From Selaginella moellendorffii (lineage: Eukaryota > Plantae > Lycopodiophyta): a DNA stretch of 64,000 nucleotides. The stretch covers positions 457,438 to 521,437 of the forward strand of contig NW_003314347.1 of the NCBI RefSeq assembly GCF_000143415.4, written 5' to 3'. Shown here piece after piece: positions 12,855 through 50,104 of this stretch; positions within the stretch are counted from its first letter, which is position 1; each line of letters opens with the position of its first letter. The position numbers and the translations under genes are program-made. Under the pieces are notes generated by a model. That model made no database searches. It saw only the letters and a program-made list of their open reading frames with translations, and was not told the DNA's origin.

Positions 12855-14429
12855 ATGGGGAGAGCTCCTTGCTGCTCCAAAGTTGGACTCAATCGAGGTC
12901 CCTGGACGCCGGAAGAAGACATGCTACTCACCAAGCACATCGAGCAGCACGGCGAAGGCAACTGGCGGGCACTTCCAAAAGCCGCAGGTCGGTCGAGATT
13001 TGAATTCTTCCAAAGTTCCAAAAAGTGTGATCTCTGATCTTCGATCTTCCTCTCTTCAGGACTCCTGCGCTGTGGAAAGAGCTGCCGGCTGCGATGGGTG
13101 AACTACCTCCGACCAAACGTGAAAAGGGGCAACATTTCGGAGGACGAAGAAGATCTCATCATAATGTTACACGCTCTTCTGGGCAACAGGTGATACACCA
13201 CCCACCAATTCTGTCCCGATTCAATCCGATGCGGTGGCGGCAGCGAAATCGGTGCGCTTGGGCACCGTGATCGCGCCGCGCTCGCATCTGGGCTCTTTGC
13301 AAAATCGTGTTTTGATCCCCAATTCCCCGGTTTTGATGAATGCAGGTGGTCGCTCATCGCGGCTCGGATGCCCGGGCGGACAGACAACGAGATCAAAAAC
13401 TACTGGAACACGCACCTGAGCAAGAAGCTGGCCAGCCGGGGATTGGATCCCAAGACCCACAAGCCCCTCGTCGCCAAATCCTCGCCCAATTCCCCGACCA
13501 AGAAGGGGGATGACAACTCCAATTCCCCCTCGTGCCACAGCAGGGGCGATGATCCGCAGGAGGCGTGGGAGACGACCATGGATTTGGACACGAGCTCCTA
13601 CAGCACTGGCTCGTGCGAGGAGTCCTGCGACGATCGCGACCGGCGCACAGAGTGTCAACCGCCCAAAGTGTGTGCTCGATTGCACAGGAAACGCAAAATG
13701 CCTGTTCTTGGGGACCTTGCCAAGGAGAAGAGTGCCTCCCCTGTTTTGAGCGCAGGCAAAATTGGTGGCGGAGCCACAGAATCATCATCGCTATCAGTGG
13801 GGCAGGAAGAAGAGCGAGAGCAAGATCTCCAAAACACCACCAAGTTTAACTACCCATCGCCTTCCTCGGTCTTCAATCTTTACTCTCCCTCGCCCTCGCC
13901 CTCCAATTCCCACTCCGCCTCCGCCTCCAACTGCGATTCGCCGACAACAATCTCCAAATCCAACACCGCCAGCAGCTCCCAGGATCTTGGCCAAGCTCCT
14001 CCGCTTGTGAGCACCAGTCAACACACGGTGGACTGGAACGATCACGAGCAGCAATTCCAGCTGCGCAGTCAAGTCCAGATGCTCGAGTTCATCGACGATT
14101 TCCTGCTGCGAAAGGATGACGTGATCGTCGCCGGCGGGGATTTGTTCAAGGAGGATTGTAGCGGTGATCAGTTTTGGGACTCGCTGGGAAAGATCGAGCT
14201 CCCCGACTGTTCTTCCGTGTGCCAATCCGATTTGTGGGATGGTCTCACAGAATTCGCATCCAATTCCACCACGCAAGTGGTGCCACCTTCCTCCTCTCCC
14301 CTTCCAGTCGCGGATGGGATCCTCCCCATGATCATCGCCTCCACATCCCCCTCTAATTCTTCTTCCTCGTCCTCCTCGCTTGCTGCCACTCAGGTGAACT
14401 TCCTCCACGACGAGCTCCTCTTTGGCTAG
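12855..14429 (+). CDS. R2R3-MYB transcription factor; exons 12855-12987, 13060-13189, 13346-14429
   Basis: [60 protein letters not shown]; canonical 133/130-nt exon pattern. Confidence 0.95.
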
Positions 14430-17422: not shown

Positions 17423-18677
17423 TTAGAACCAGAGGTGATCGGTGTTGCCGGGGACGATGCTGGATCCTTCCACGCCGCTGCTGTCGATGGGCCTCACAAT
17501 CTCCACGTCCCACGACATATCCGAGTGGAACGAGTCCATGATGAAGCTCGAATCGCCCGTGGCGTCGTAGTAGAAAGCGGGCGGGAAGAAATAATCCTTG
17601 AGGGCGATGCTGCTGTCAGCGGTATCGGATATCTCCGAGTAGCTGTGCTCGGACTGGATCAAGTGGTTGACTCGCGTGCTGACTGGTTGAAGCAAGACAC
17701 CACCTTGCAGCGTTGACGAACATTCTTGCGTTACAACTTGAGCTTTGTCGCCGTCGTCCATGGCCAGCTTCGCCACCTTTTCGTCCTGGTGGCAGCTGCA
17801 TGGCGACGACGACTCATTACTGTCCGTGGGTGGAAAGTTGGCGGACGCGCCGGGCTGATCCAACGGCTGATGCGAGTTTGGGTCGATTCCCATGCCCTGT
17901 AGCTTCTTCTTGAGATGTGTGTTCCAGTGGTTTTTGATCTCGTTGTCTGTTCGTCCGGGGAGCCTGGCAGCTATTTTAGACCACCTATGATTTATGAGTG
18001 AGAGGGATGGATTGATTCACGGGGACCATAAACATACTTATGTGAGAAAAATATATAAGAAAAGAACGGGAGATATATTATCATACCTGTTGCCCAGTAA
18101 AGAATGGAGCTTGACGATAAGCTCGTCTTCTTCTTCGGTGATGTTTCCGTGCTTGAGATTGGGACGCAGGTAGTTTATCCAGCGAAGCCTACAGCTCTTC
18201 CCACAACGACGGAGTCCTGCAAGGATCACACTAATCGTTTAAAACGATGCAACTTGAAAATCAAAGTTTTGGAGTTTATATGATAGCACGAGCCTTCTGA
18301 CCACTTCAAGCGACTTCACGAACGAATCAATCAAAAAACGAGTGCTTTGTTTGACAATGCTGCAAGTTACGACAAAGATACTGCAAACATCAAGCTTGAG
18401 CGGAGTATATAAGGGAACAGGGACGTTCTAACTAGCTACAACGCAAACATGGCTTGTCTAGAGGGAATCTAGCAACCACGAGGAAAATCTCAGAGAATGT
18501 AGAGACAAGGAGTGGAATGAGATTTGGGCGGATCAAACCTGCGGCCTTTGGAAGCGTTCTCCAAGACCCTTCGCCGTGCTCGTTGACATACTGCGTGAGG
18601 AGCGTGTCTTCTTCACGTGTCCATGGACCTCTGTTGAGACCGATTTTCTCGCAGCAAGGAGATCGACCCATCTGCAT
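17423..18677 (-). CDS. R2R3-MYB transcription factor; exons 18677-18539, 18216-18087, 17984-17423
   Basis: [60 protein letters not shown]; 130-nt exon 2. Confidence 0.93.
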
Positions 18678-21870: not shown

Positions 21871-24329
21871 CTACCCAGCCCTGTGTAAGTTCAATAGGGC
21901 GCTGTTGACGAGCTCCTCGAGGCTGCTGGAATGCTTGGTAAGTCCCACAAAATCCGAAAACGTTAAGAAGTTTTCTTCGTCTGAGGCAGTCGCTAACATT
22001 GCTCCCAGGGACGCCTCCATTTCACCGTCTTCTCTAAAACGTCGCAAGAACCTGGCGTCCTTTGCCACCAAGCTGTTCAGAAGCTCTACGCTATATCGCC
22101 GGATACGATTCAAGCTCCTAGAAGGTGCTGTGTGGGATAGAAGCTCTGTGAATTTTTCGCAAAGCCGTGATTGTTGCGATAGCACGCCTTGTTCAAAGTT
22201 CCGTCTGTCGAGCCAGGGGATTATGGCTGCTGCCAAACCGATGGCTGCCTGCTGTTCCTTGTCCGTGGATTCCAGCACCATCTGGATGATGCGAGATATG
22301 GCTGCTCCAAGCTCCAACTTTTCTTCGTCGTTAAGGTCACCGCACAAGCTTTGCAAAATTGTGGCTGCATGGACTCCAACTGGCTTGGTGAGCATGTTGA
22401 TCAAGCTCTTGAGGGTCTTGCTAACGCCACCTTGTCTGCAGCTTTTGTGCATGAGGAGCCTCGAGCAATTGTTGGGACACTGGAAAACGAGCACAATTAT
22501 GGCTTCCCCGGCTCTCATGCCACCGGTCAACTGGTCGCTGTTCGGTGCGGTTTCTCTCGTAAATATGGCCATCAAGCTTTGGATAACTCCTCCAGTCGCA
22601 CCAATGCAATCTCTAAGCTCGTCCTCGGTTGCTAGCAGCTTGATCACGTCGACTGCCAGGTCTTGTAGCTCCAAATCTTCGAGATTGCATATCCTTTGAA
22701 GACTTCTTACTGCTGGCACTACCGACACCATCTTCTTTCGCAGAGACCGTCCAGAATCTCCTCGCACGCTAGCCAATGTCTTCAAAAGATCGAGTGATGG
22801 ACGGAATACTTCTTTCGACGTTCGTACTTCGTCTTGGATAAATTCAACCAGGATGGAGAGAAGTCCGCTGGTGTGACCGATTCGCACGCATGTCCTGTAA
22901 TCCACGGCTAGCCCGTTGAGGATAGTGAGTCTGTAGCTCTTTTCTTCTAGCACTTCCTCCTGTCTTTCGGGTAAAAGAGCAGTGAGGGCCTCCAGGGATC
23001 CAGGGATAGCGGAAATCCTGAAGCAGTTATGGCTGTGACGAACCAGGTGCTTGATTACTATGGTTGCAGCTTTCCTGATTTCGGCCTCACTAGGATCCTT
23101 CCAGGTGATCATCTCTAAGAGTCTCTCCACAACTCCGGGCGTGGTACCAATCCTCCGTTGCGTTTCTTCCATTGAATCTCCTTTTGAGACAAGAGCTGAC
23201 AGTATGTTGACGCTACCGAGCTGCTCTTCCCTTATGCTTGACTGCAGCTTCTCGACGGTGAAATCGATAAGGTCCATTCCCAGGCCATCAAACACGCTTC
23301 CGTTCAGCGATCGTGAGTACAATGTGTACCAGTACTGCTTCATGGTTTCAATGTCGTCTTGATCAAGCTCACATGTTCGAGTGACTACTTCCAGCAACCT
23401 CTGGTAACGAAGCTTGAATTCCCAATATGTTCTCTCCAGGAGGAATAGCGACGTTTCTGCCAGCATCATCGCGTAAAACACAGTAAGTGCTTGCTCAGTG
23501 TTGTTTCCTTGGGCATTGAAGCCGTGCTCGGCAAGTCGATATACTGAGAAACATGCGGTGACTGTTGCAGAAGCAAGCTGGAGGAAGTACATGAAAAGGC
23601 TGATGATCCTGGTGGGGAGGAACTTTACATACGCGCTTCCCACGCACCAAATTCTTCTGGCAGCGAATCCCTGGTGTAAATCTTTCTTTACTGGTTTTTT
23701 GGAAAGTCGATCTCTACTCACGTTCTGTTCAGAGTGGTCATGGTCCAAGACTCCAGAGAACTTCTCCCATAATCTGGCGCTCTTGTCGAACAGGAACGAT
23801 CTGAAGCCGAGAATTCCCAAGCTGTAATTTGCCTGCTGCCATTCCAACTCGCTACTTCGACTGAAAACCCGCGTTCCTTCAGTCAGCAGCAAGGCCGAGA
23901 TCGTCCAAAAGTCTTTGGCCGGAATGTTGCTCACGAATCCACCGAGGAGAACAACAGTTGCCCAGACGAAGGCCAGTTTCCCGAGGCCAGTGGCGAACTT
24001 TTCAAGAACTGCGAGCCTGAAAGCTATCAGATTTAGCTGCTCTGGTGATCGGGAATTATTCCTTTCCACTGGAGCTGAAGACTTTAAAAAAGTGGAAAGC
24101 TGCTGCAGCTCTGGAGCTGAAGGCTTGGGAGTGGAAGGCTGCTGCTCGACGTCCGGATGTGGGACGACAACGCACTGGTATTGAGGGTTCAAGTGCTTGA
24201 AGGTGGAGAAGCGAGAGCAGAGCCGGAAGAAGGAACTTGAATGGTTACCTCGTCCGCAAAGTGAACGGTACTCTTGGGGGCACCGGCAGACTGTGCCCCT
24301 TGAAACTTTCTGCTGTTCCACGAATCCAT
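21871..24329 (-). pseudogene. TM + ARM-repeat protein (BLE2/At4g14280-like), copy 1; probably disrupted at the 5' end
   Basis: The long ORF has RLAVLEKFATGLGKLAFVWATVVLLGGF and IRRYSVEL...ENF..FS..VGL. The shared MDSWNS ATG at 24329 hits TGA at about 24190 and is out of frame by a 10-nt indel; the listed ORF starts at TTG. Confidence 0.65.
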
Positions 24330-24697
24330 GTTTAGTGTTCAAGGAGTTCTGGGCATTCTGGGCATTCTGGTGACCGTGGTATTGACGACTTCAAAGCCGC
24401 TTGAATGTCTTTCTCATGTTGCTGGCATAAGCAAGTAAGCTACTACTTTCGTTCTATGATAGCACGAGCCTTCCGAGCACTTCAAGCTACTCATCACGAG
24501 CAAATCTATGATAGCACGAGCCTTCTGAGCACTTCAAGCGACTCGTCACGAGCGAATCAATAAAAAACGAGTGCTTTGTTTGACAGTGCTGCAAGTTGCG
24601 ACAAAGACACTGCAAACATCAAGCTTGAGCGGAGTATATAAGGGAATAGGGACGTTGTAACTAGCTACGACGCAAACATGGCTTGTCTAGAGGGAAT

Positions 24698-37857: not shown

Positions 37858-40750
37858 GGCACCACCAACAAGAAAATGAAGAAACTAGAAAATGCCTGTG
37901 GAAGCTTTGGGAAGAACACAGGATGAAGTTCGACTGGGACGAGAAGAATACGCTGGGTGTTATATACGAGATGTTTGTTTTAAATCAATGTTTTCCGCTC
38001 TGCTGGTCTCTTGCAAATGTTTCTAGCTATGAGATAGATGCTTCAGACACACAAGGGACCAGGACCAAGAGCAAAGCTTGAATCTTTTGACCCCTCGACG
38101 AAAGGAAGCTAGAGACTCGTATAGGGATCTAAAAAACCTGTTGCTTGTCCCGCCATGCAAACATCACTCCCTTTCTCGCTCGTTAAATTGCGGTAGGATC
38201 TCTCAAGAACATGACCACTATACTGTTGATGACTATCGCTACAGTAGGATGGACTTTGTGGTATAGCTTGGGCTGGTGTGCTCCACAGAAGCAGCACGAA
38301 CTACACAGGAGGAAGAAAGAAAAGGTAGAGAAGAAAGTGAAGAAGAATCAATGAAGAAGACGAAGAAAGGAGCTAATTACTGCTGTCCGTGAAGATGAGT
38401 GGAGAGAGCAACTTCAAAGAGCTAAAACTTTCACACGACAAACGGTCAGACGGGAAACTGGAGCGATCTGGCACTAGTGCTGCCATTCCAGATCGATCAA
38501 TATTGTTTGACAACAATGATCTGACACACACAAGACTGTTTTCTTCGTCTCGGTAGCGCCCTTTCTACTGTTGCACAACAAACTATTGCACAGCCGTGGA
38601 AGGGAATAATAGTATATAGAAACCTGTTGTATCTCGTACTCTTGCTCTATAAATTCTCCATAAACTTAAAGCTTCTTCTTCCAGGCCTAGAGAAAAGTCG
38701 GCTTCAAACACACAGCATGGCCATCTTTTAGTGTGTACTGTGCAGAACTCTCCCTTTCAACCAGGTCATATAGTTTGCCACTTACTAGGCTTAGGTGGTG
38801 GGAAAGAAAAAACTGGAGTATTCCTTCTCACGTAGTGATGTTTCTATCTTATACTTAAGAACCTTGTGTTGGCTCGAGGAGTAGTACTACGAAGTGGTGT
38901 AATGAACGCAAAGCTTGGACAGGGCAGATTGCTACTGAACACTATTGCCACTGCTACAATTGTCTCAAATTTGCAGGGCAAACTTTCTTTTCCTTCTTGT
39001 GAATATTACAATTGTCTTTCATTGTGCAAGATAAAAATTAATTTATACCTCCCAATATATAGATATTTATATATAAAAAAATTTTTAATACAATTAATTC
39101 AATCACACAAAATCTTTGTTTCCTTTTTTTGATGACATGCATCATAAACATGCCCCTAATTGATCTTGTTGTAGTCATTATCACCATTTAAATAGATAAA
39201 CATCAAATCATCTAAAGTTTCAATCTTTAAAGAGCATTTTGAAGTAGTTTTTAACTGATTTTGATAAAAAAATCCACCTTTAGCACAAGTAGTGCTCATA
39301 GGTATCAAAGAGATAATTTTCCATAGTTCCATCAAATTAGAATATATATCTATCATGGAAATATCATCTCTGCATATTTACTAAGCCACTAGCTCATTTT
39401 TTATTAACAGATTACTTTGCATAGTAGTTACAAACTTTGTGAATTCTCCTTTACATTTTTCCCCATCAACAAAAGCACCATACTAGTTCAGTAAAATATT
39501 TAGCCATTTGTAAAAGTTGTTATCCAATTTTTCTTTATCATTTGAGTAATTCTTTGGGCTAAACAATTTTGTAGCATTGAATATGCCTATATCCTTTCCC
39601 ATTCTGGCCAGCATATTAATGTATAATTTCTGAATACATTCTTTGTTTAAATCTAAGCAAGAGCTCAAGCTCTCATCTCTTTTGCTCTCTGGAATAGGAG
39701 TATAATCTAAGGCATGCTTTTGTTATTCCCCTTTAGCATTTATAAACTTGATAAATTCATCTTTAGTAGCCTCCACAAAATTACTCAAGTGTTTCACACT
39801 AAAAGTCTCTTTCAGAAATTTTCTTTAGATACTTTTCAAAGTACCATCTAAATACCTAGCAATGTTAGCAATATCCACAATTTCAACTTTAAAAGATTTT
39901 GTTCAAACTATTCAATTCCAGAAGTATATAAGGTAGCATATGAATAAATGATCAATCTCTTTAAGACTTCCCCATGAAATAACTAACATATATTATGAAT
40001 TTGAAACATACCTATGTAAATATATTTATAGCATCTTTTAGAGGCTTAAAAGCTATGACTCTTTTTTAAAAGTATGCAACCATTTATAAATTTGATTGCA
40101 TAGCTTTTGAAAAATCATAAGTTTAAGAAATGCATGCACAACTTGCCACTAAACTTTATCTATGCGCTAAACAATGCATTCCAAACAAGTGTGGAATGTT
40201 ATGTTTCAATATTGTCACTAGACCAAATTATTTTCCAACCATAATAAAAGCTCCATCAGTTCCAATAACAACACATTTTCCCTTTTTAAAGTTCATTTCT
40301 TCCAAAACCTTTTTGATGGCTTCATATTTATTTACAACCTTTAGTTACCATCAATTTGAAAAAGCAAGTTTTATTCAGACTTTTTTCTTTTTCTTACATA
40401 TGGAAAGAGATGTATATGATAAGATGAGCTTCCAAACTTCTATCAGTATTGTTATCCACCATAATAGAAAAGTAAGGACTAGCTTAAATATTTTGGCAAA
40501 CATCTTTCCATCACACATCTTTTTTGCATTTTACAAACTCTTTCCCACTCATAGCATTCATATAAGTCCTATACTCTATAGTGATTGGCATATAGGGCAT
40601 TTCTATAAACCTATTAAATTCACACAAAGATTTATAGCTTTGTAAAGGTAATCCCTTATTCACAATGAAGTACATGTGTTGCATTAAGGAAATCAATTTA
40701 TTTTTGTGTTGATTTTTTTGAGCAATAATACATTTAAGGATAGATAACCC

Positions 40751-41906
40751 TGTAAGGAACCAACTCGCTGAGGTGTCGTAGGCTAAAGGAACCCCGAAAG
40801 CATGACCAAAATGACAAAGAGTTCATCGGATGGGACCAAATCGAAGATCGAGTCCAAGACCAACTCGGAGACCGAGTTCGAGATAGAGTCCAGAATCGAG
40901 TCCGAGGCTGACTCGGGGACCGAGTTTGAGACCGAGTTCGAGACGGAGTCCGAGATCCGAAATTGGGTCCAAGACTGAGTCCGAGGTTGAGTCCGAGGTC
41001 GGGTTTGAGATCGGGTCCGAGATTGAGTCCGAGATCGAATCCGAGACCGAATCCGAAGTCGGATCCGAAATCGAGTCCGAGATCGAGCCAGAGACTAAGT
41101 CCAAATACTAATACGGGTCAAGGGGTGAAAGCCCAAAGCGTGCATCTCCCAGGGGGGGGGGGGGGGGGGGGCTCCAGGCTGTTCTTCGAAGGCTCTTCAA
41201 AGGAGATGATCAAGTTCCTAGCTTGTTCCAGCTTTTAAGCTGGAAGGGAGAACTAAGCAGAGTCAAAATTCTATTTAGAAATTAAGTCGAATGCACTTTA
41301 ATGTGTGGCTTTAAAATTTGTAGAGTCTATCTTGGCCTTTGAGGTTATGTACAAGACTATGGGCCTTCTAACTATGGTGCTGCGGTGCTCCCAGCTCATG
41401 TGGAGTGGTGCCCCACTTGAGTACCTTGTGGCTCATTGGTCCTTGCCCTTCCTAGGGACTTGGGCCTTCCCTTCAGGATAGAAGTGGGGGGGTAGAGGTA
41501 CCCATACCGCACCATTAGGCCACAGTGTTTCGCCCCGATGTCCCGAAGCAAGTGTTGCACCTAAGGCTTGGGATTTAGAGGGTCCCATGATCAAGTCTTG
41601 TTGTACCAAGGGATGTTAGAAACCTTGAGGCTTGGTGTGCTTGGCTGCTTGTGCTTGCGGGGAGTGTAGCCGAACCTTAAGTCCAGTCTAACCTGGGGAG
41701 GGGGATTGGGAGAGATTGGGAATCCGTGGATGGATGGCTAATGCTCCGTTGCTCGTGCAGTGAGTAGCTGAAACCAAGTAGGACCAAGTAGGAGTTGGTA
41801 CCATAGGCGAGAACCTTGGCGAGGGAACTTAGCAAAAGCTAAGGCAATGTCAGACGGATAGACGAGGTAAGCTGGCAAATGGGAAAGGAAAAAATTGTGG
41901 CTTACA
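40751..41906 (+). repeat. 5' LTR (1156 bp)
   Basis: TG...CA ends; direct repeat of 47117-48262. Confidence 0.95.
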
Positions 41907-41909
41907 ATT

Positions 41910-41921
41910 TGGTATCGGAGC
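41910..41921 (+). promoter_or_regulatory. Primer-binding site, tRNA-iMet type
   Basis: TGGTATCGGAGC 3 nt after the LTR end (consensus TGGTATCAGAGC). Confidence 0.9.
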
Positions 41922-41965
41922 CTTTTCCTCAGTTCTAGCGAAGGATAGAGGCGGATTGCTGGGAG

Positions 41966-44900
41966 ATGGCAAGGGCAGGGCGTAAGCGAACCCAGGTGGA
42001 GATGGAACCTCCGCCAGAGCTGGAGCCTCCGGTCGAACAAGAGGCTATGGATGAGGAATCTTTGCATGAGGAGGACTCCAGTGAGGAAACTTCTAAACAG
42101 GAGTCCAGTGGCGAGGTTCGGTCGTCCAAGGCTCGATTGGACGTTCTAGAAGGACAATTGGCGCAGACCAATGCCCTGCTGGAGACTCTCGTACGCAAGC
42201 TAAAGCGTGACAAGAAGTGGAAGAAAAAGCGAAAGATTGTGGATGCTGGCAGCGCAAAAGGTGCGGACCCTTCGGCAGGGACTAAGGCAAAACCAGACAA
42301 GGTCGAACACAGGCAATTCCCAAGTACAAACCAAAACCCCCACTGGTCTTCAAGGGAGTGAACGACTATAAGGTTGTGGAGGATTGGTTTTACGATATGG
42401 AGGACTACTTCTGAGCGTTGCGGTTACCGAGCTCGGAGAAGGTCCCATGTGCAAAACCATACTTGGTAGATAATGCCAAGTCTTGGTGGAGAACAACGGA
42501 GGCCAACGAAGGACCGGTGGTCACTTGGGACATGATGAAGGCGAGGATCCGCGCAATATACGTTCCTCCGAATGCCACTCTGCATCTGAGAGATGAGCTG
42601 AGTAGGCTGAAGCAGACTGGAACCATCCAGGAATATGTGAATGGGTTCATGGCAAAGAGGATACTTGTCACGGACATGGGGGATATGGATGCGTTCCATG
42701 CCTTTATATCAAGTTTGCAAACCTGGGCTCGCGGTGAGGTGATGTGCTGGAACCCGACCAACTACAAGGAAGCGTTGGATGCGGCCATCAAGGTGCATTT
42801 CAACGATAACTTGCGAAAGGGGAACATGACGGGGTCGGGATCCACGTTTAGCAAAGGGGCCAAACCAAGGGGAACGTATAGCAAAGGGAAATTCAAGAAG
42901 AGTTTCTCTAAGAATGAGTCCTCGGGGTTCCAGAAAGGCAAATCCGGTGGCCAGCGAGCGAGTACGTGGGGGAGTCAAGTGAAAAGAGACAAACCCATGG
43001 ATAAGAAGGTCAAGTCGTATAGCAGCATGGGAAACAACGTATGCTACAACTGCGGTGAAGCGGGATACTTTTCGAGGGAATGTCCCTACGCGAAGAAGGC
43101 CAGAGCCAATATGGTTATCAAGTCGGGTGAAGTCCAAACTGAGGTATGTGATCCAGTCCCTAACTCAATGTTACTCATTACACGAGCAACTTTGGTAGAG
43201 AGTTGTTCGCGACATCTACTAGCCCTCCGAGGGAAGCTCGGAGGTAGCTTTGTTAAGATCTTTATTGACACGGGTGCTTCGGATAATTTTGTGGCTGTAG
43301 ACATAGTCCGGCAAGCCAGACTAATGGTGCAGCAACTAGGCGAACCAAGGACTATAGAGTTTGTTCAAGGTAGCTAAAGCACCGATGAGGTACTTCGACA
43401 AGGGAGAGTCGAAGTAGGGACATGGAAAGTAAACATGGATTTCACCGTGTTGGATATGGCGGGATTTGACGTGATCTTCAGAATGGATTGGTTCAATCGG
43501 TTCGTGGTAGCCCTGCATAGACAAGGTAGGAACCTTGTGGTACTAGCGAATGCCCAAGGAAGAAGATCTAGGGTGGAGGCCTAAGATCTAAAGGTAGGGC
43601 AAAGCAAGGCCAAAGATTCCTGCTTAAACTTGGTGTCCACGAGAGGACAACTCACTAAAGGAATTAAGGTAGCCTTTTTGTGCTTACTCTCGGTGAAGAG
43701 TGACAAAAAGACAGAAACGGAAGAAGTACCTTTAGTGATCTAGCGGGTGTTGGACCAATTCCAGGATACCATGCCAGAGGAGCTACCGGCGGGGTTGCCC
43801 CCCGCACGACCGATAGAACATAAAATTGAGCTGGTCGAGGGTGCTGAGGCGGTGGTTCGTCCCCCCTATCGTTTGAACGAAAAAGAACTCAAGGAGCTCA
43901 AGTGCCAACTAGAGGAGTTGGTGGACAAAGGGTATGTTAGGTTGAGCAAGTCGCCGTATGGGGCGCCGGTGTTATTTGTGAAAAAGAAAGATGGTTCTAT
44001 GCGCATGTGCATACACTATCGGTTGCTCAACAAGTATACAAAGAAGAACAAGTACCCTTTGCTAAGAATTGAGGACTTGTTCGATAAGTTGGGAAAGGCA
44101 AAATACTTCTCGAGGATTGACCTAAGGTCAGGATACTGCCAGATCAAGGTAGCTGAGGAAGATGTCGAGAAGATAACCTGTCGAACGAGGTATGGGAGCT
44201 TTGAGTTTCTGGTGATGCCCTTTGGGCTATGCAATGCGCCGGCAACGTTTTCGGCGCTGATGAACCACATCTTTGTACCCTATCTGGATCACTTCGTGGT
44301 CGTCTATATCGACGACATCCTGATCTATAGCGAGACGCTAAAGGAGCATGCCGAACACTTGGCGAAGGTGTTTGAGAAACTAAGGGAACACAAACTGTAT
44401 GCTAAAGAGAGCAAATGTGACTTTGCTCAACAAGAGGTAAAGTTTCTCGGGCATGTGGTGGGCCAGGACAGGCTCAAGGTGGACCCGGAGAAGGTCCAAG
44501 CGATCCAGGAATGGGAGTGACCATCGAGTGTATATGAGTTGAGGGCATTCTTGGGGCTATGCAACTACTATCTAAAGTTTATCAGACACTATTCGAGAGT
44601 AGCCCTGCCCTTAACGGACCAAACAGGAAAAGGGAAGATGGTATGGACAGCGGAATGTGAGGCGGCATTCGTCCACCTCAAAGGGAAATCGAGGAAGACC
44701 CCCGTGTTGGCATTACCAGACTTTGGTAAGGACTTTGAGGTAAAAACGGATGCTTCAGACTTTGCGTTGGGCGCGGTTTTGAAGCAAGACAACTATCCAG
44801 TAGCGTTCTTCTCGAAGAAATTGGACAAGGCTCAACGGAAGTGGCTTGCCCATGAGAAGGAATTGTTTGCGGTAGTCAAGGAGCTCAAGGAGTGGCGACA

Positions 44901-46712
44901 CTACCTTGGGAGACACTTCAAGGTTTACACGGACAATGTGGCAACGAAACACTTCTTGTCACAGCCCGATCTGAGAGGGAAACAAGGTCGGTGGGCCAAT
45001 GCCTTGGCCGAGTTTGATTGCGAGATTCTGTATAAGCCTGGGAAGAGCAACATCGTGGCGGATGCGCTAAGTCGAAAAGCGAGCTTGAGGTTGGCAATAT
45101 CCAGCGCAACAACAACCTTCTGGGACGATGTGCAGACAACATATGAGAACGATGGTCTAGCACAAGAAGTGTTGCTGAGGAACCTAGAGGCAAGGGAAGC
45201 TCACCAGAGAGGTGAGCTGCCAACGGAAGAGAAAACGGGCTATGCGGAACGCAACGGACTCATCTATTACAAGCAAACGAGGGTGTATGTTCCAAAAGGG
45301 GGACTAAGGAAGGTAGCCTTAGAAGAGTGTCATGACGGACTTCTTGCGGGACACGGCGGAGTGCCCAAGACGATGGGCTTACTCAAGAGGAAGTACCATT
45401 AGCCAGATATGGCTAAGGACGTCCAAGACTAAAAGACAAGTCTAACATGTTAGCAGGTCAAAGCCGTGACTAAGGCTAGTGGGGGCTTGTTGCAAAGCAT
45501 CCCAATTCCAGATCGTCCATGGAAATGTCTTACGATGGACTTCATCACGGGACTACCCCCAAGCGAGGGGTTTGATGCGATATTCGTGGTGGTGGATCGA
45601 TTTTTGAAGATGGCACATTTCATACCCACCACAACGGAAGTGGATGTGGAAGGTGTGGCGAAGCTGTTCTTTGAGCAAGTGGTTCGAGTGTGGGGAAGGC
45701 CAAAAGAGATTATCTCAGATCGAGATAAGATCTTCACTAGTAGGTTTTGGAGGACCCTCCTGGAACAGTATCGCACCAAGTTGAAATTCAGCACAGCCTA
45801 TCACCCACAGACAGGTATGGGGTATTAAGTCAAGTTGATGGCACTAACACTTCTTGATAGACGGACAAACAGAAAGGGTGAATAGGCAGCTGGAGGATTA
45901 TTTGCGATGCTATGTCTCAGGAGACCAGACCGATTGGGTAAGTCATTTGGGACTTGCAGAAATGTGTTATAATAACTCACCACATTCGAGCATCGGGGTG
46001 AGTCCATGGGAAGTCATCAATGGGCGAGCCATTGAAGGTCCTATGGAACTCGGCGTGGCTGAGTATCATGGAGAGCTACCCGCAGTGGAGGCATTCACGG
46101 CGGAAAGACTCAACATTTGGAATCTAGTGAGGGATTCCTTGGAACGGGCGCAACAAAGGCAAACCAAGTACGCGAACCAGAAGCGCCGGGACGTAGAGTT
46201 CCAAGCTGGGGAGAAGGTGTGGCTGAACACCAAGAACCTCAGGCTACCAAGTGGGATCAGCCAGAAGTTGACCCAAAGGTAAAAGTGCATGTATTCCTGT
46301 AAATGAATTGATCTGGAGTTCCTTAAGCAGGTTCGCGGGGCCTTACGAGATTGAGGCTCGAATCGGTAAAGTGCCTTACCGTCTCCGACTTCCTCGAGAG
46401 ATGTGGAAGATGCATCCCGTGTTCCACGTGAACTTACTCAAACCGTATTTTGAAGATCCGCTTCGCAAGGACCAAGTAAGACCTTTACCTGAGGTTATCC
46501 AAGGGGAAGAGGAATACGAAGTCGAAGCCATCCTCAATGCGCGCAAGAGCAAGCAACAAGGACGCGAGGTGAGAGAGTTCCATGTGAAGTGGAAAGGATT
46601 TCCACACTACGAAGCAACATGGGAACCGGAGGAGAACCTAGCGAACGCGCGAGATCTAGTGGAGGAATTTCTGCAAGGCAGAACTCTATGTACTTATGCA
46701 AAGTTCAATTAA
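41966..46712 (+). pseudogene. gag-pol: gag-pol polyprotein with in-frame stops, one gag frameshift and two introns in integrase (45815-45860, 46279-46330)
   Basis: CYNCGEAGYFSREC knuckle, protease IDTGAS, RT YIDD, RNase H TDASDFALG, INT HDG..GH, TMDF, SDRD, type-I-like chromodomain YEVEAIL..VKWKGF...TWEPEENL. Segments 42418-45814 share one frame; most stops look like CGA/CAA/CAG/TGG transitions. Confidence 0.93.
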
Positions 46713-47104
46713 AAGTATCAATTTGTGAAGTTGAGCAATGGCATATGTTGGGACCCGAAGGTGCGCCGAAGGTAAGCTAATTAGCATGGGTTAGCTAGGT
46801 CGACCAGGCGTAGGGAGCTACGCCTGACTCCCTGCGGGGATGTCGAATCCGTAGACGTATTCTACGGAGGTTGGGTTCGAGTCCTAACCCCCTAGTAAAG
46901 CAAGGCTGGGTTCAAGTCCCAACCCCATACTAGGGCGTGGTGAGGTGAGGAGTATAGGGACACATATATTCCGTTGTCATGGGCTCTTGGCCGAGGAGGC
47001 TAACTTAGGCACACCGCTAAGTGGGGGGATGCCCCCGGAGACATGGTTAACAAGTCATAGGATCAAAAGAGAGACGTTCGATGTGGGCATCGAACTTTTT
47101 CTAT

Positions 47105-47115
47105 GGGTGGTGGAG
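47105..47115 (+). promoter_or_regulatory. Polypurine tract
   Basis: GGGTGGTGGAG immediately before the 3' LTR. Confidence 0.75.
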
Positions 47116-47116
47116 T

Positions 47117-48262
47117 TGTAAGGAACCAACTCGCCGAGGTGTCGTAGGCTAAAGGAACCCCGAAAGCATGACCAAAATGACAAAGAGTTCATCGGATGGG
47201 ACCAAGTCGAAGATCGAGTCCAAGACCGACTCGGAGACCGAGTTCGAGATAGAGTCCAGAATCGAGTCCGAGGCCGACTCGGGGACCGAGTTCGAGACCG
47301 AGTTCGAGACCGAGTTCGAGACGGAGTCTGAGATCCAAAATCGGGTCCAAGACCGAGTCCGAGGTTGAGTCTGAGGTCGGGTCGATCTCGGACTCGATTT
47401 CGGATCCGACTTCGGATTCGGTCTCGGATTCGATCTCGGACTCGATCTCGGACCCGATCTCGGAGCCAAAGACTAAGTCCAAATACTAATACGGGTCAAG
47501 GGGTGAAAGCCCAAAGCGTGCGTCTCCCAGGGGGGGGGGCTGCAGGGGGTTCCAAAAGTATAGTAGGGATAGTGAGGTCCAGGAACCAGTTTTGAAGGGA
47601 CTCTCCAGTGGGGCTCCCAAACCGACTTGAGGTTGAGATTGGGATCGAGGGGCCTTGGGTGGGAGTGAGCATGGACTTGGCTGGTGCCGGAGGGGCTATC
47701 CAAGGAAGTGCTCAAGAGCAGCTCCCACTCCCGAAAGGGAAACCGATTGCGGTGCTCCCAGCTCATGTGGAATGGTGCCCCACTTGAGTACCATGCGGCT
47801 CATTGGTCCTCGCCCTTCCTAGGGGCTTGGGCCTTCCTTCGGGATGGAAGTGGGGGGGTAGAGGTACCCATACCGGGCCGCTAGGCCACAGTGTTTCGCC
47901 CCAGCGTCCCGAAGCAAGTGTTGCACTCAAGACTTGGGATTTAGAGGGTCCCATGATCAAGTCTTGTGGTACCAAAGGATGTTAGGAACCTAGAAGTTTG
48001 GTGTGCTTGGCTACTTGTGCTTGCGGGGAGTGTAGCCGAACCTTAAGTCCAGTTTAACCTGGGGAGGGGGATTGGGAGAGATTGGGAATCCGTGGATGGA
48101 TGGCTAACGCTCCATTGCTCGTGCAATGAGTAGCTGAAACCAAGTAGGAGTTGGTACTATAGGCGAGAACCTTGGTGAGGGAACTTAGCAAAAGCTAAGG
48201 CAGTGTCAGACGGATAGACGAGGTAAGCCGGCAAATGGGAAAGGAAAAATTTGTGGCTTACA
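47117..48262 (+). repeat. 3' LTR (1146 bp)
   Basis: TG...CA ends followed by the AACCC TSD. Confidence 0.95.
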
Positions 48263-49434
48263 AACCCTTTCTTCTTCTTTATTTCTCAAATAACCATAGC
48301 TAGTTGATATTGTTTGGAATTGTTATGCTATTTTAAAATTGGTTTTTGAAAAGTCAAAGAACCATCCTTACGAAAAAAATTATCCTTTTTAGCATATACA
48401 TATATCGTACATTTTATTCTTTAATTGCCTCCAACATCTATCACAAGATACACCCAAGGAAAACTAAGTTTCCACTTAGTTCTGAATGCTTTATTATTTT
48501 TCCTCTTTTTATTGGTTGTAGTATTAGTTTCTTCTTCTGTTGTTGAAAGATGTTCATCCTCTGATCTAATTTTAAATCCTTCACCAAAAAAGGAATCATA
48601 AAGCTCTTGCCTTGCAATATTTTGTTAACCTATATTTCTTTTCTCCTTCTCATAGGCAATAGCAAAAAATGCTTCAATCCTATGTTGTTGCTGTCACTAT
48701 CACTGCTTTCCCATTTGAATTCAATGAAGTTGACATGGATTAGGTTTAGGGCAGGTTGTTATACACTAGGATATTTTTACAATATTCTTAATAATATTTG
48801 ATAGAATATTATCTGTACTGCAATGTACGAATTTTCTTTGCCCAGCAAGTGGCAACACTAAAATATTTCTATACTTCATTAGTGCAAGGTGAAAATTGAA
48901 CATTTCTTTCAAGTAGCAACGTAAATTAGAAATCAGTCTTCAAATGCAAAGTAAACATGCCTTTGCAAGGCGCAAGGTGCAAAACTGAGGCCTACATTGT
49001 CATCCCTAAATGTGATTTGGGTGCCACAGTTCTAAAGAGACTGTCGCTATAGGAGAGCTTATGAGGATGTTGAGATATTGCTGTAAGTTCCTTCATGCAC
49101 TTCACAGTGATCGTAAATGCCTTGTGATGGCATCCTAAACTTGTACTGTGGCATCTGCATTGCCAGTTCAAAGATTAAATAGCCCACAACCAAGAACAAA
49201 GTGAAGAAAATGAGAAAAAATCTAAGAATGTTGCTGTCCCTTAAGTTTCTCTTGCCATAAATTCGCTGCTACAATAGCTTATATCCTTTCTACGCTTTAA
49301 GTTTCAGTGCCCGTAGCGGATTTGGACACTGTTGACCACAATTGACTATCGTTCACCAATGGACCGTTAACTTTGCTGACTATGCTGGGTTCGATTCCTG
49401 CGCTGGGCGATATTGCCAGGGCTAGGGTTCTTCG

Positions 49435-50104
49435 ATGGGGCTCAAGCTGCGAGCAGTGCCGATCACGGAGGTGAATTTCCGGCCTTTTGGCCAGCTCCTG
49501 GGAAAGATCGGCGACGGATGCGAGTATGGATCGGGAGACGCGCAGCTCAATCTCGCGAATGGGATTCCCAGGTAGTGCAGGCAAAATGTGGCCGAAATTT
49601 CCAGCGGCTCAGTAGTGATTGAGTGAGTGATGGTTCCTTTGCGCAGATTCTACCTCATGGAGCTCAAGAAAACGGGGCTGCGATTCAAAAGGATAACGCA
49701 TCACGCCAGGGTGACGCAGTGTCTGGGATCAGTGGGAGCTCATCCTTGGTACATGGCGGTCTCTCTTCCCAGCATTGTGGATCCTTCATCGCAACACGAG
49801 GGCGCTGTTCGATCCAACGCTGGTGGCCACTCCTATTTACCTCCCTCTCATGCAAGCGTCCAGGTTTTCAAGATAGATGGTCCTCGCTTCATCAAGCTAA
49901 ACGAAGGAACTTGGCACGCTGGTCCTCTCTTTGGCGATCGAGATTCGATGGTCTTCTACAACTTGGAGCTCAGTGACACCAACGTAAGATCATTCGATCG
50001 AGCTTGTATGACTTATGTTTTCTCCCTTTTTATGTTCTTTTTATTTGCAGGTTGTGGATCACACTACCCACGTGTTTGAGGACGACGTACTGATCGAAGA
50101 TTGA
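49435..50104 (+). CDS. Ureidoglycolate hydrolase-like, copy 3 (appears intact)
   Basis: MGLKLRAVPITEVNF...HVFEDDVLIED*. Confidence 0.85.

Follow-up and report, generated by a model that had tools for sequence, protein, structure and literature searches.

The stretch of DNA analysed here (the window) comprises 64,000 nucleotides (nt) of contig NW_003314347.1 of Selaginella moellendorffii (assembly GCF_000143415.4), and all coordinates given below are positions within it. At 40751-48262 on the + strand it contains a long terminal repeat (LTR) retrotransposon of 7512 nt, which is flanked by the target-site duplication (TSD) AACCC at 40746-40750 and 48263-48267. Its Pfam domains follow the Ty3/gypsy order, i.e. 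gag, zinc knuckle, protease (PR), reverse transcriptase (RT), RNase H (RH), integrase (IN) and chromodomain, and the gag-PR-RT-RH-IN arrangement with a C-terminal chromodomain, together with TG..CA LTRs, a 5-bp TSD, a primer binding site (PBS) and a polypurine tract (PPT), is that of a Ty3/gypsy chromovirus. Reverse transcription normally purges introns. Four GT-AG junctions, the first of which removes the end of the 5' LTR together with the whole PBS, exist in probable RNA of copies of this family, and the family retains its introns. The features of the element are as follows, with X denoting sequence runs.

40746..40750, no strand: 5' TSD, AACCC, with its partner at 48263-48267
40751..41906, + strand: 5' LTR, 1156 nt, TGTAAG...CTTACA, with a G20 run at 41152 (sequence, LTR comparison)
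41867..41932, + strand: leader intron, 66 nt, GT-AG, comprising the LTR's final 40 nt, a spacer, the whole PBS and a pyrimidine tract; spliced in X1 and X2 contigs, unspliced in one of X3
41867..41905, + strand: predicted hairpin, donor GTAAGC paired with LTR-terminal GCTTAC (folding)
41910..41922, + strand: tRNA-Met PBS, 13 nt, after a 3-nt spacer (sequence; the family SM1-Galahad is described with a 13-nt Met PBS)
41966..43143, + strand: gag as far as the second donor (Retrotrans_gag and zinc knuckle domains), its frame broken and interrupted by a stop in this copy (Pfam, sequence)
43144..43300, + strand: gag/protease intron, 157 nt, GT-AG, containing the protease DTG motif; joint in X1, retained in X7 and X4 contigs
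43744..45814, + strand: RT, RNase H, integrase zinc finger and integrase core up to HPQT, with several in-frame stops in this copy (Pfam, tblastn)
45815..45860, + strand: integrase intron 1, 46 nt, GT-AG, with an in-frame stop at 45826, splitting HPQTDGQTE; joints in X1, X2 and a read of X13, retained in X3
46279..46330, + strand: integrase intron 2, 52 nt, GT-AG, with an in-frame stop; joints in X1 and X2
46331..46712, + strand: last exon, SH3_Tf2-1 and chromodomain; its stop at 46710-46712 overlaps ATTAAA (Pfam, tblastn)
47105..47115, + strand: PPT-like stretch preceding the 3' LTR (sequence)
47117..48262, + strand: 3' LTR, 1146 nt, holding a copy of the donor at 48223 (sequence comparison)

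Eight of the 23 listed sequence runs were mapped onto positions 41180-47110. None of the listed runs is recorded as RNA, and the status of X1, X2 and X3 as probable RNA is an automated guess. X1 and X2 are different samples of one study, X3 belongs to an independent study and X13 to another study than X1 and X2; of the raw-read runs X13-X15, about 12% of each was read. As the mapped sequences are mostly 90-99% alike to the window copy, the RNA derives from sister copies, not from the window copy itself. Contigs of X1 contain four GT..AG joints, namely 41866^41933 (66 nt), 43143^43301 (157 nt), 45814^45861 (46 nt) and 46278^46331 (52 nt). The leader joint is present in one X1 contig and in one X2 contig (1341 nt), i.e. 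in 2 of the 8 runs, from one study, and no contig retaining the leader intron was found in X1 (4 of 4 records listed) or X2 (5 of 7 listed). An earlier note, made from the sequence, had proposed a 66-nt intron holding the LTR end and the whole PBS; this intron is confirmed by the exact 41866^41933 junction, being real and removed exactly as predicted in probable RNA. The two integrase introns, which the same note had relied on, are spliced together on one contig in X1 and again in X2, and a single raw X13 read, which belongs to another study, also has the joint of integrase intron 1. Both spliced and retained states exist for the leader and for integrase intron 1, as an X3 contig (41381-42037) crosses the leader unspliced, and another X3 contig retains integrase intron 1.

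The remaining runs bear on individual sites. At the acceptor of the gag/protease intron, X3 has a 28-nt loose end that by eye resembles the end of the gag exon, and an X2 contig begins at this acceptor. The listed X4 contig in the leader region ends at 41846, before the leader site, and an X4 contig retains part of the gag intron. X7 is DNA-like, with 449 contigs of summed depth about 40-220 that cover to the end of the mapped region and have loose ends at the LTR end; the gag intron is retained there in a contig of depth 41, and none of the four joins is found among 15 of its 16 joint rows, though joints of depth 2 appear there. Runs X13-X15 have zero depth over the leader, and are no evidence on it either way. 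Their main raw-read signal is an LTR fragment, 41381-41717, flanked on both sides by non-element sequence and also found in X1, which is probably part of a host transcript containing an LTR remnant at another locus.

The landmarks of the leader intron all lie where the earlier note had placed them: the donor GAG|GTAAGC with its GT at 41867, its copy at 48223, the acceptor CCTTTTCCTCAG ending at 41932, an alternative TAG at 41938, of which no use is seen in the mapped runs, and the gag ATG at 41966. The LTR ends with CA at 41906, and the PBS, which matches tRNA-iMet, starts at 41910; the label U5 for the LTR end is assumed. In addition, an upstream open reading frame (ORF) begins inside the intron at ATG 41879, runs for 19 codons to a stop at 41938, and ends 28 nt before gag. 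By themselves, these motifs would make a weak case for leader splicing, not beyond chance. The copy of the donor in the 3' LTR was dropped as evidence of splicing, because LTR identity alone predicts it, a 9-nt stretch having a chance of ~0.55 of staying identical between these two LTRs. Motif enrichment was likewise dropped, since the window has 4 copies of AGGTAAG where 6.2 would be expected, so that there is no enrichment. The branch-like CTTAC of the earlier note is indeed located at 41901-41905, but it fails as independent branch-site evidence: it is the terminal inverted repeat of the LTR, the reverse complement of the LTR 5' end TGTAAG, and therefore needs no splicing role. It is not CURAY, although it fits the looser yUnAy, and it is located 28 nt ahead of the acceptor.

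The other three introns fall at informative positions in the coding region. Removal of the 157-nt intron deletes the protease active site and brings a stop one codon past the junction, which gives a Gag-only frame; the gag-spliced X1 contig extends to 44062, ~760 nt beyond this stop, though a contig is not proof of one molecule. This intron (43144-43300) was missed by the earlier note, and represents a copia-like strategy in a Ty3/gypsy element. Integrase intron 1 falls between HPQT and DGQTE, ahead of the third catalytic residue, the E of DGQTE, and integrase intron 2 lies between the core and the SH3/chromodomain exon. The two have lengths of 3n+1, tblastn alignments of 4 of 4 relatives shift frame at their positions, and the HP[QE][TS] motif is contiguous in 28 of the 35 relatives carrying it. 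As both introns contain stops and change the frame, unspliced RNA is unable to code for a complete integrase. The three short introns are comparable in length to host introns (57-65 nt, 4 measured).

The dimensions of the element point to a family that has already been described. SM1-Galahad is a Galadriel-related chromovirus of Selaginella moellendorffii with hundreds of copies, about 7.5 kb in length, with LTRs of 1146 nt, poly-G tracts and a 13-nt tRNA-Met PBS (PMC3350952). Its consensus has an ORF1 of 3885 nt without a chromodomain, followed by ORFs of 316 and 309 nt, the latter containing the chromodomain (PMC3350952). The window element has 7512 nt, a 3' LTR of 1146 nt, G20 and G10 runs and later ORFs of 318 and 309 nt, and the distance from ATG 41966 to the stop in integrase intron 1 is 3885 nt plus the stop once 25 nt are allowed for two minor differences in length in the mapped contigs. 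From these matching dimensions and the published description, not from sequence identity, we infer that the element belongs to SM1-Galahad. The published consensus contains both integrase introns, unrecognised: the paper, supplement aside, has 0 occurrences of the words "intron" and "splic" (PMC3350952), and it interprets the 3' end as three ORFs, whereas here the breaks are spliced introns, in addition to two further introns in the leader and gag. The published family ORF terminates at the stop within integrase intron 1, so the introns are carried along as the family multiplies, as the earlier note had supposed. The sister family SM2-Galahad, on the other hand, has a single uninterrupted ORF and an intact copy; in the published account, no intact copy of SM1-Galahad was found in the genome (PMC3350952). 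In protein searches, the closest RT showed 65% identity, one Gag relative was found at 70%, the middle integrase exon had one weak match, and no close family members appeared. A metagenome scan gave 11 distant loci, none of them with DNA similarity to the element, and viral contigs contained 0 matches to the LTR-end/PBS pattern.

The window copy itself is decayed, with a break of the gag frame and eight premature stops, and the 3' parts of its two LTRs diverge by 6.4%. About 200 nt of its 5' LTR (about 41165-41380; 3' LTR counterpart 47540-47747) have been replaced by unrelated, AT-richer sequence beside the poly-G run. In the mapped runs, the middle of the LTR is the 3'-LTR version, which includes the candidate transcription start; the window copy thus probably lacks its promoter. 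Between the two LTRs, 83 nt of the short-repeat region stand in opposite orientation (41007-41089 versus 47379-47461, 98% complementary). The insertion site is one unit of a tandem array of host genes, four other units of which have an empty site. This array (about 18400-64000) consists of about six units of 6.2-6.8 kb with pieces of MYB-like genes; it also contains an armadillo-like ORF (21871-24390) and an ORF (49627-50076) which presumably resembles ureidoglycolate lyase and has no Pfam match. Two further MYB-like genes, at 13194-14429 (+) and 17423-18016 (-), are inverted relative to each other and form an inverted repeat.

Introns are normally lost on transposition, as was an intron inserted in a Ty element (PMC12786077), so their persistence in this family needs a mechanism. 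We consider it fairly probable that this Ty3/gypsy chromovirus carries four spliceosomal introns and that leader splicing takes away the LTR end and the PBS, likely making the spliced RNA translation-only and leaving the unspliced RNA as the template. Three classes of RNA would then be made: RNA spliced at all four sites would yield nothing but Gag, RNA retaining only the 157-nt intron would give the full Gag-Pol with the chromo-integrase, and unspliced RNA would serve as the genome, with active integrase supplied in trans on Gag-Pol. By the established course of retroelement replication, spliced RNA without the PBS and the LTR end would be unable to prime or to finish second strand transfer. 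In the Selaginella element, loss of the PBS would abolish minus-strand priming and second strand transfer, and the integration end would be removed as well. Because the leader intron is transcribed ahead of the integrase introns, by about 4 kb, a transcript entering splicing would usually lose its PBS first, and intron-less progeny would be rare. Leader splicing may in this way account for the persistence of the introns, with the splices presumably coupled on single molecules. Exclusion from packaging would also be needed, because co-packaging with template switching could bypass the missing PBS. Somewhat more doubtful, in our judgement, is the proposal that the lineage gained its integrase introns and that these became heritable by the location of the PBS and the integration end inside the first intron, with the hairpin acting as a switch between genome and messenger RNA (mRNA). 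With the same reserve, any transcript entering splicing would disarm itself as a genome, and the genome RNA would encode no active integrase.

The predicted hairpin, in which the donor pairs with the LTR terminus, may mask the leader donor in genome RNA, and is thus a candidate for such a switch. Its pair probability is 0.57-1.0 in four windows, with z = -2.0 for the 5' LTR and -4.9 for the copy in the 3' LTR, in windows chosen after the match had been seen. A stem between the purine tract and the pyrimidine tract had a probability of 0 in four windows at the one register examined. As to the transcript ends, the X1 and X3 contigs, which come from two studies, have their first letters 162 and 159 nt upstream of 41381, with the last 30 letters of this part matching the 3' LTR; if colinear with it, they start at 47586 and 47589, just past a TATA-like stretch and ~635 nt before the donor, and the X2 and X4 contigs start at 47646 and 47545 in the same numbering. 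These starts are a weak hint against a transcription start downstream of the donor, and may result from breaks in the assembly close to the poly-G run. At the other end, the X1 and X2 contigs terminate at 46659 and 46669, close to the ATTAAA at 46708 and far short of the PPT, and those of X3 and X7 continue. The spliced mRNA may therefore end before the PPT, as seen in one study. A strong donor-like AAG|GTAAGC is located at 46772, with no joint from it in the mapped runs; it possibly suppresses that end in genome RNA.

Leader donors upstream of the PBS have been described in retroviruses, and the contrast that the earlier note drew with this group does not hold: the major splice donor of foamy viruses is in R (PMC3694450), and an element in U5 of HTLV-1 (human T-cell leukemia virus 1) is present only in unspliced RNA, owing to the position of the donor (PMC3504254). 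The major donor of human immunodeficiency virus type 1 is downstream of the PBS (PMC3694450, PMC9142903). In foamy viruses and HTLV-1, as in the Selaginella element, a donor in the LTR upstream of the PBS is used, and the spliced mRNAs lack U5 and the PBS (PMC3694450, PMC7828637, PMC3504254). Foamy viruses furthermore make Pol from a spliced mRNA, and access to their LTR donor is controlled by RNA structure (PMC3694450, PMC7828637), as the predicted hairpin may do here. The introns of these viruses, however, are long and reach downstream genes, whereas the one described here, 66 nt long, takes out only the LTR end and the PBS ahead of gag; the Selaginella element also differs from them in its short introns within integrase, in having no envelope, and in its plant host.

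Among retrotransposons, the gag/protease intron is similar to the short-Gag splicing of the copia elements EVD and BARE1, in which an intron removes the protease and Gag stops at the junction (PMC5580714, PMC3735527). The copia study found no conserved splicing among Arabidopsis Ty3/gypsy elements, whereas the Selaginella element is of this type (PMC5580714). The translated pool of BARE is excluded through its missing R, not a missing PBS (PMC3735527); EVD's spliced RNA has an early end (PMC5580714), but the X1 contig spliced in gag reaches 44062; and full-length copia RNA still encodes integrase, but unspliced Selaginella RNA does not. Ogre is likewise a plant Ty3/gypsy element that needs splicing for its full polyprotein and keeps its intron in the genome (cited in PMC6317226, PMC12786077); in the text covered, however, it has one intron between Gag-Pro and RT and none in integrase or over the PBS (PMC6317226, PMC12786077). 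Ogre and EVD have single regulatory introns, and the long RNA of Cer1 requires skipping of several splice sites; PMC2864245 is a further source for such comparisons. Penelope-like elements also keep introns, including one of the 5' untranslated region in or spanning the boundary of the terminal repeat, but they lack both tRNA priming and integrase, their intron overlaps an internal promoter, and the significance of its retention was called unknown (PMC8557442). No LTR retrotransposon with a PBS-spanning intron or integrase introns was found in the literature searched, with Repbase and most subscription papers outside it; five REXdb supplement files gave no match for Selaginella or intron, and other supplements could bear on novelty.

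Several observations weigh against leader splicing as the device that separates translated from genome RNA. The leader, gag and integrase joints are found on separate contigs, so that no molecule connects leader with integrase splicing; the leader junction comes from a single study, the RNA status of X1-X3 is guessed, and the unspliced X3 contigs could be DNA. X3 apparently mixes states on different contigs, with the gag intron spliced and the leader and integrase intron 1 retained, and the three raw-read runs have no depth over the leader. Contigs lose rare variants, so rare intron-less copies are possible, and co-packaging with template switching would be a leak route for PBS-less RNA. The hairpin depends on the folding window, since an 86-nt window (41860-41945) favours another fold (z -0.14).

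It is also conceivable, though unlikely in our assessment, that the leader intron serves mainly translation or RNA processing, by removing the upstream ORF or a structured leader, or through binding of U1 to the donor for control of polyadenylation. Loss of the PBS would then be secondary, and the introns would persist through selection of unspliced RNA by other signals, in packaging, export or a separate transcript class. The ATG of the 19-codon upstream ORF does lie in the intron, but eight more ATGs are located upstream in 41381-41866, so loss of one may matter little. The LTR donor of foamy viruses governs polyadenylation independently of splicing (PMC3694450), the pools of BARE are split by promoter choice and the absence of R (PMC3735527), and the X1 and X2 contig ends near ATTAAA are a weak hint, from one study, of a second, 3' safeguard. 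The intron boundaries, on the other hand, closely bracket the integration end and the PBS, and such a role is compatible with leader splicing that renders spliced RNA translation-only. Far less probable is that the spliced contigs are transcripts of one processed, intron-less genomic copy instead of products of ongoing splicing. X1 and X2 do come from one study with a single contig per site, but X7 lists no such joins, the intron-1 junction was read in another study, and a processed copy would itself stem from RNA spliced at these four sites. Least probable, by a small step, is that SM1-Galahad represents a defective family, mobilised in trans by intron-less SM2-Galahad, whose integrase insertions are fixed and whose splicing is cryptic host splicing without a function: the lack of an intact SM1-Galahad copy beside an intact SM2-Galahad (PMC3350952), the gag frame break and eight premature stops of the window copy, and the ease with which cryptic introns arise in a host with equally short introns (57-65 nt, n=4) would fit it, but removal of both 3n+1 insertions restores conserved motifs exactly at the frame change versus 4 of 4 relatives, the logic of the gag intron equals that of the functional copia short-Gag splice, and accident is unlikely to have placed four clean GT-AG introns at meaningful positions.

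According to a 2025 review, plant LTR retrotransposons are generally without introns, with Ogre and EVADE named as exceptions (PMC12786077). The existence of four introns in a high-copy family, two of them required for integrase, means that a retroelement can carry obligatory introns. Screens based on ORFs misread such families as defective, as was the case with SM1-Galahad, and the intron-less sister family SM2-Galahad in the same genome provides a natural case for the study of intron gain and loss. The 66-nt intron around the PBS would be a small, testable answer to the separation of mRNA and genome RNA in one transcription unit.
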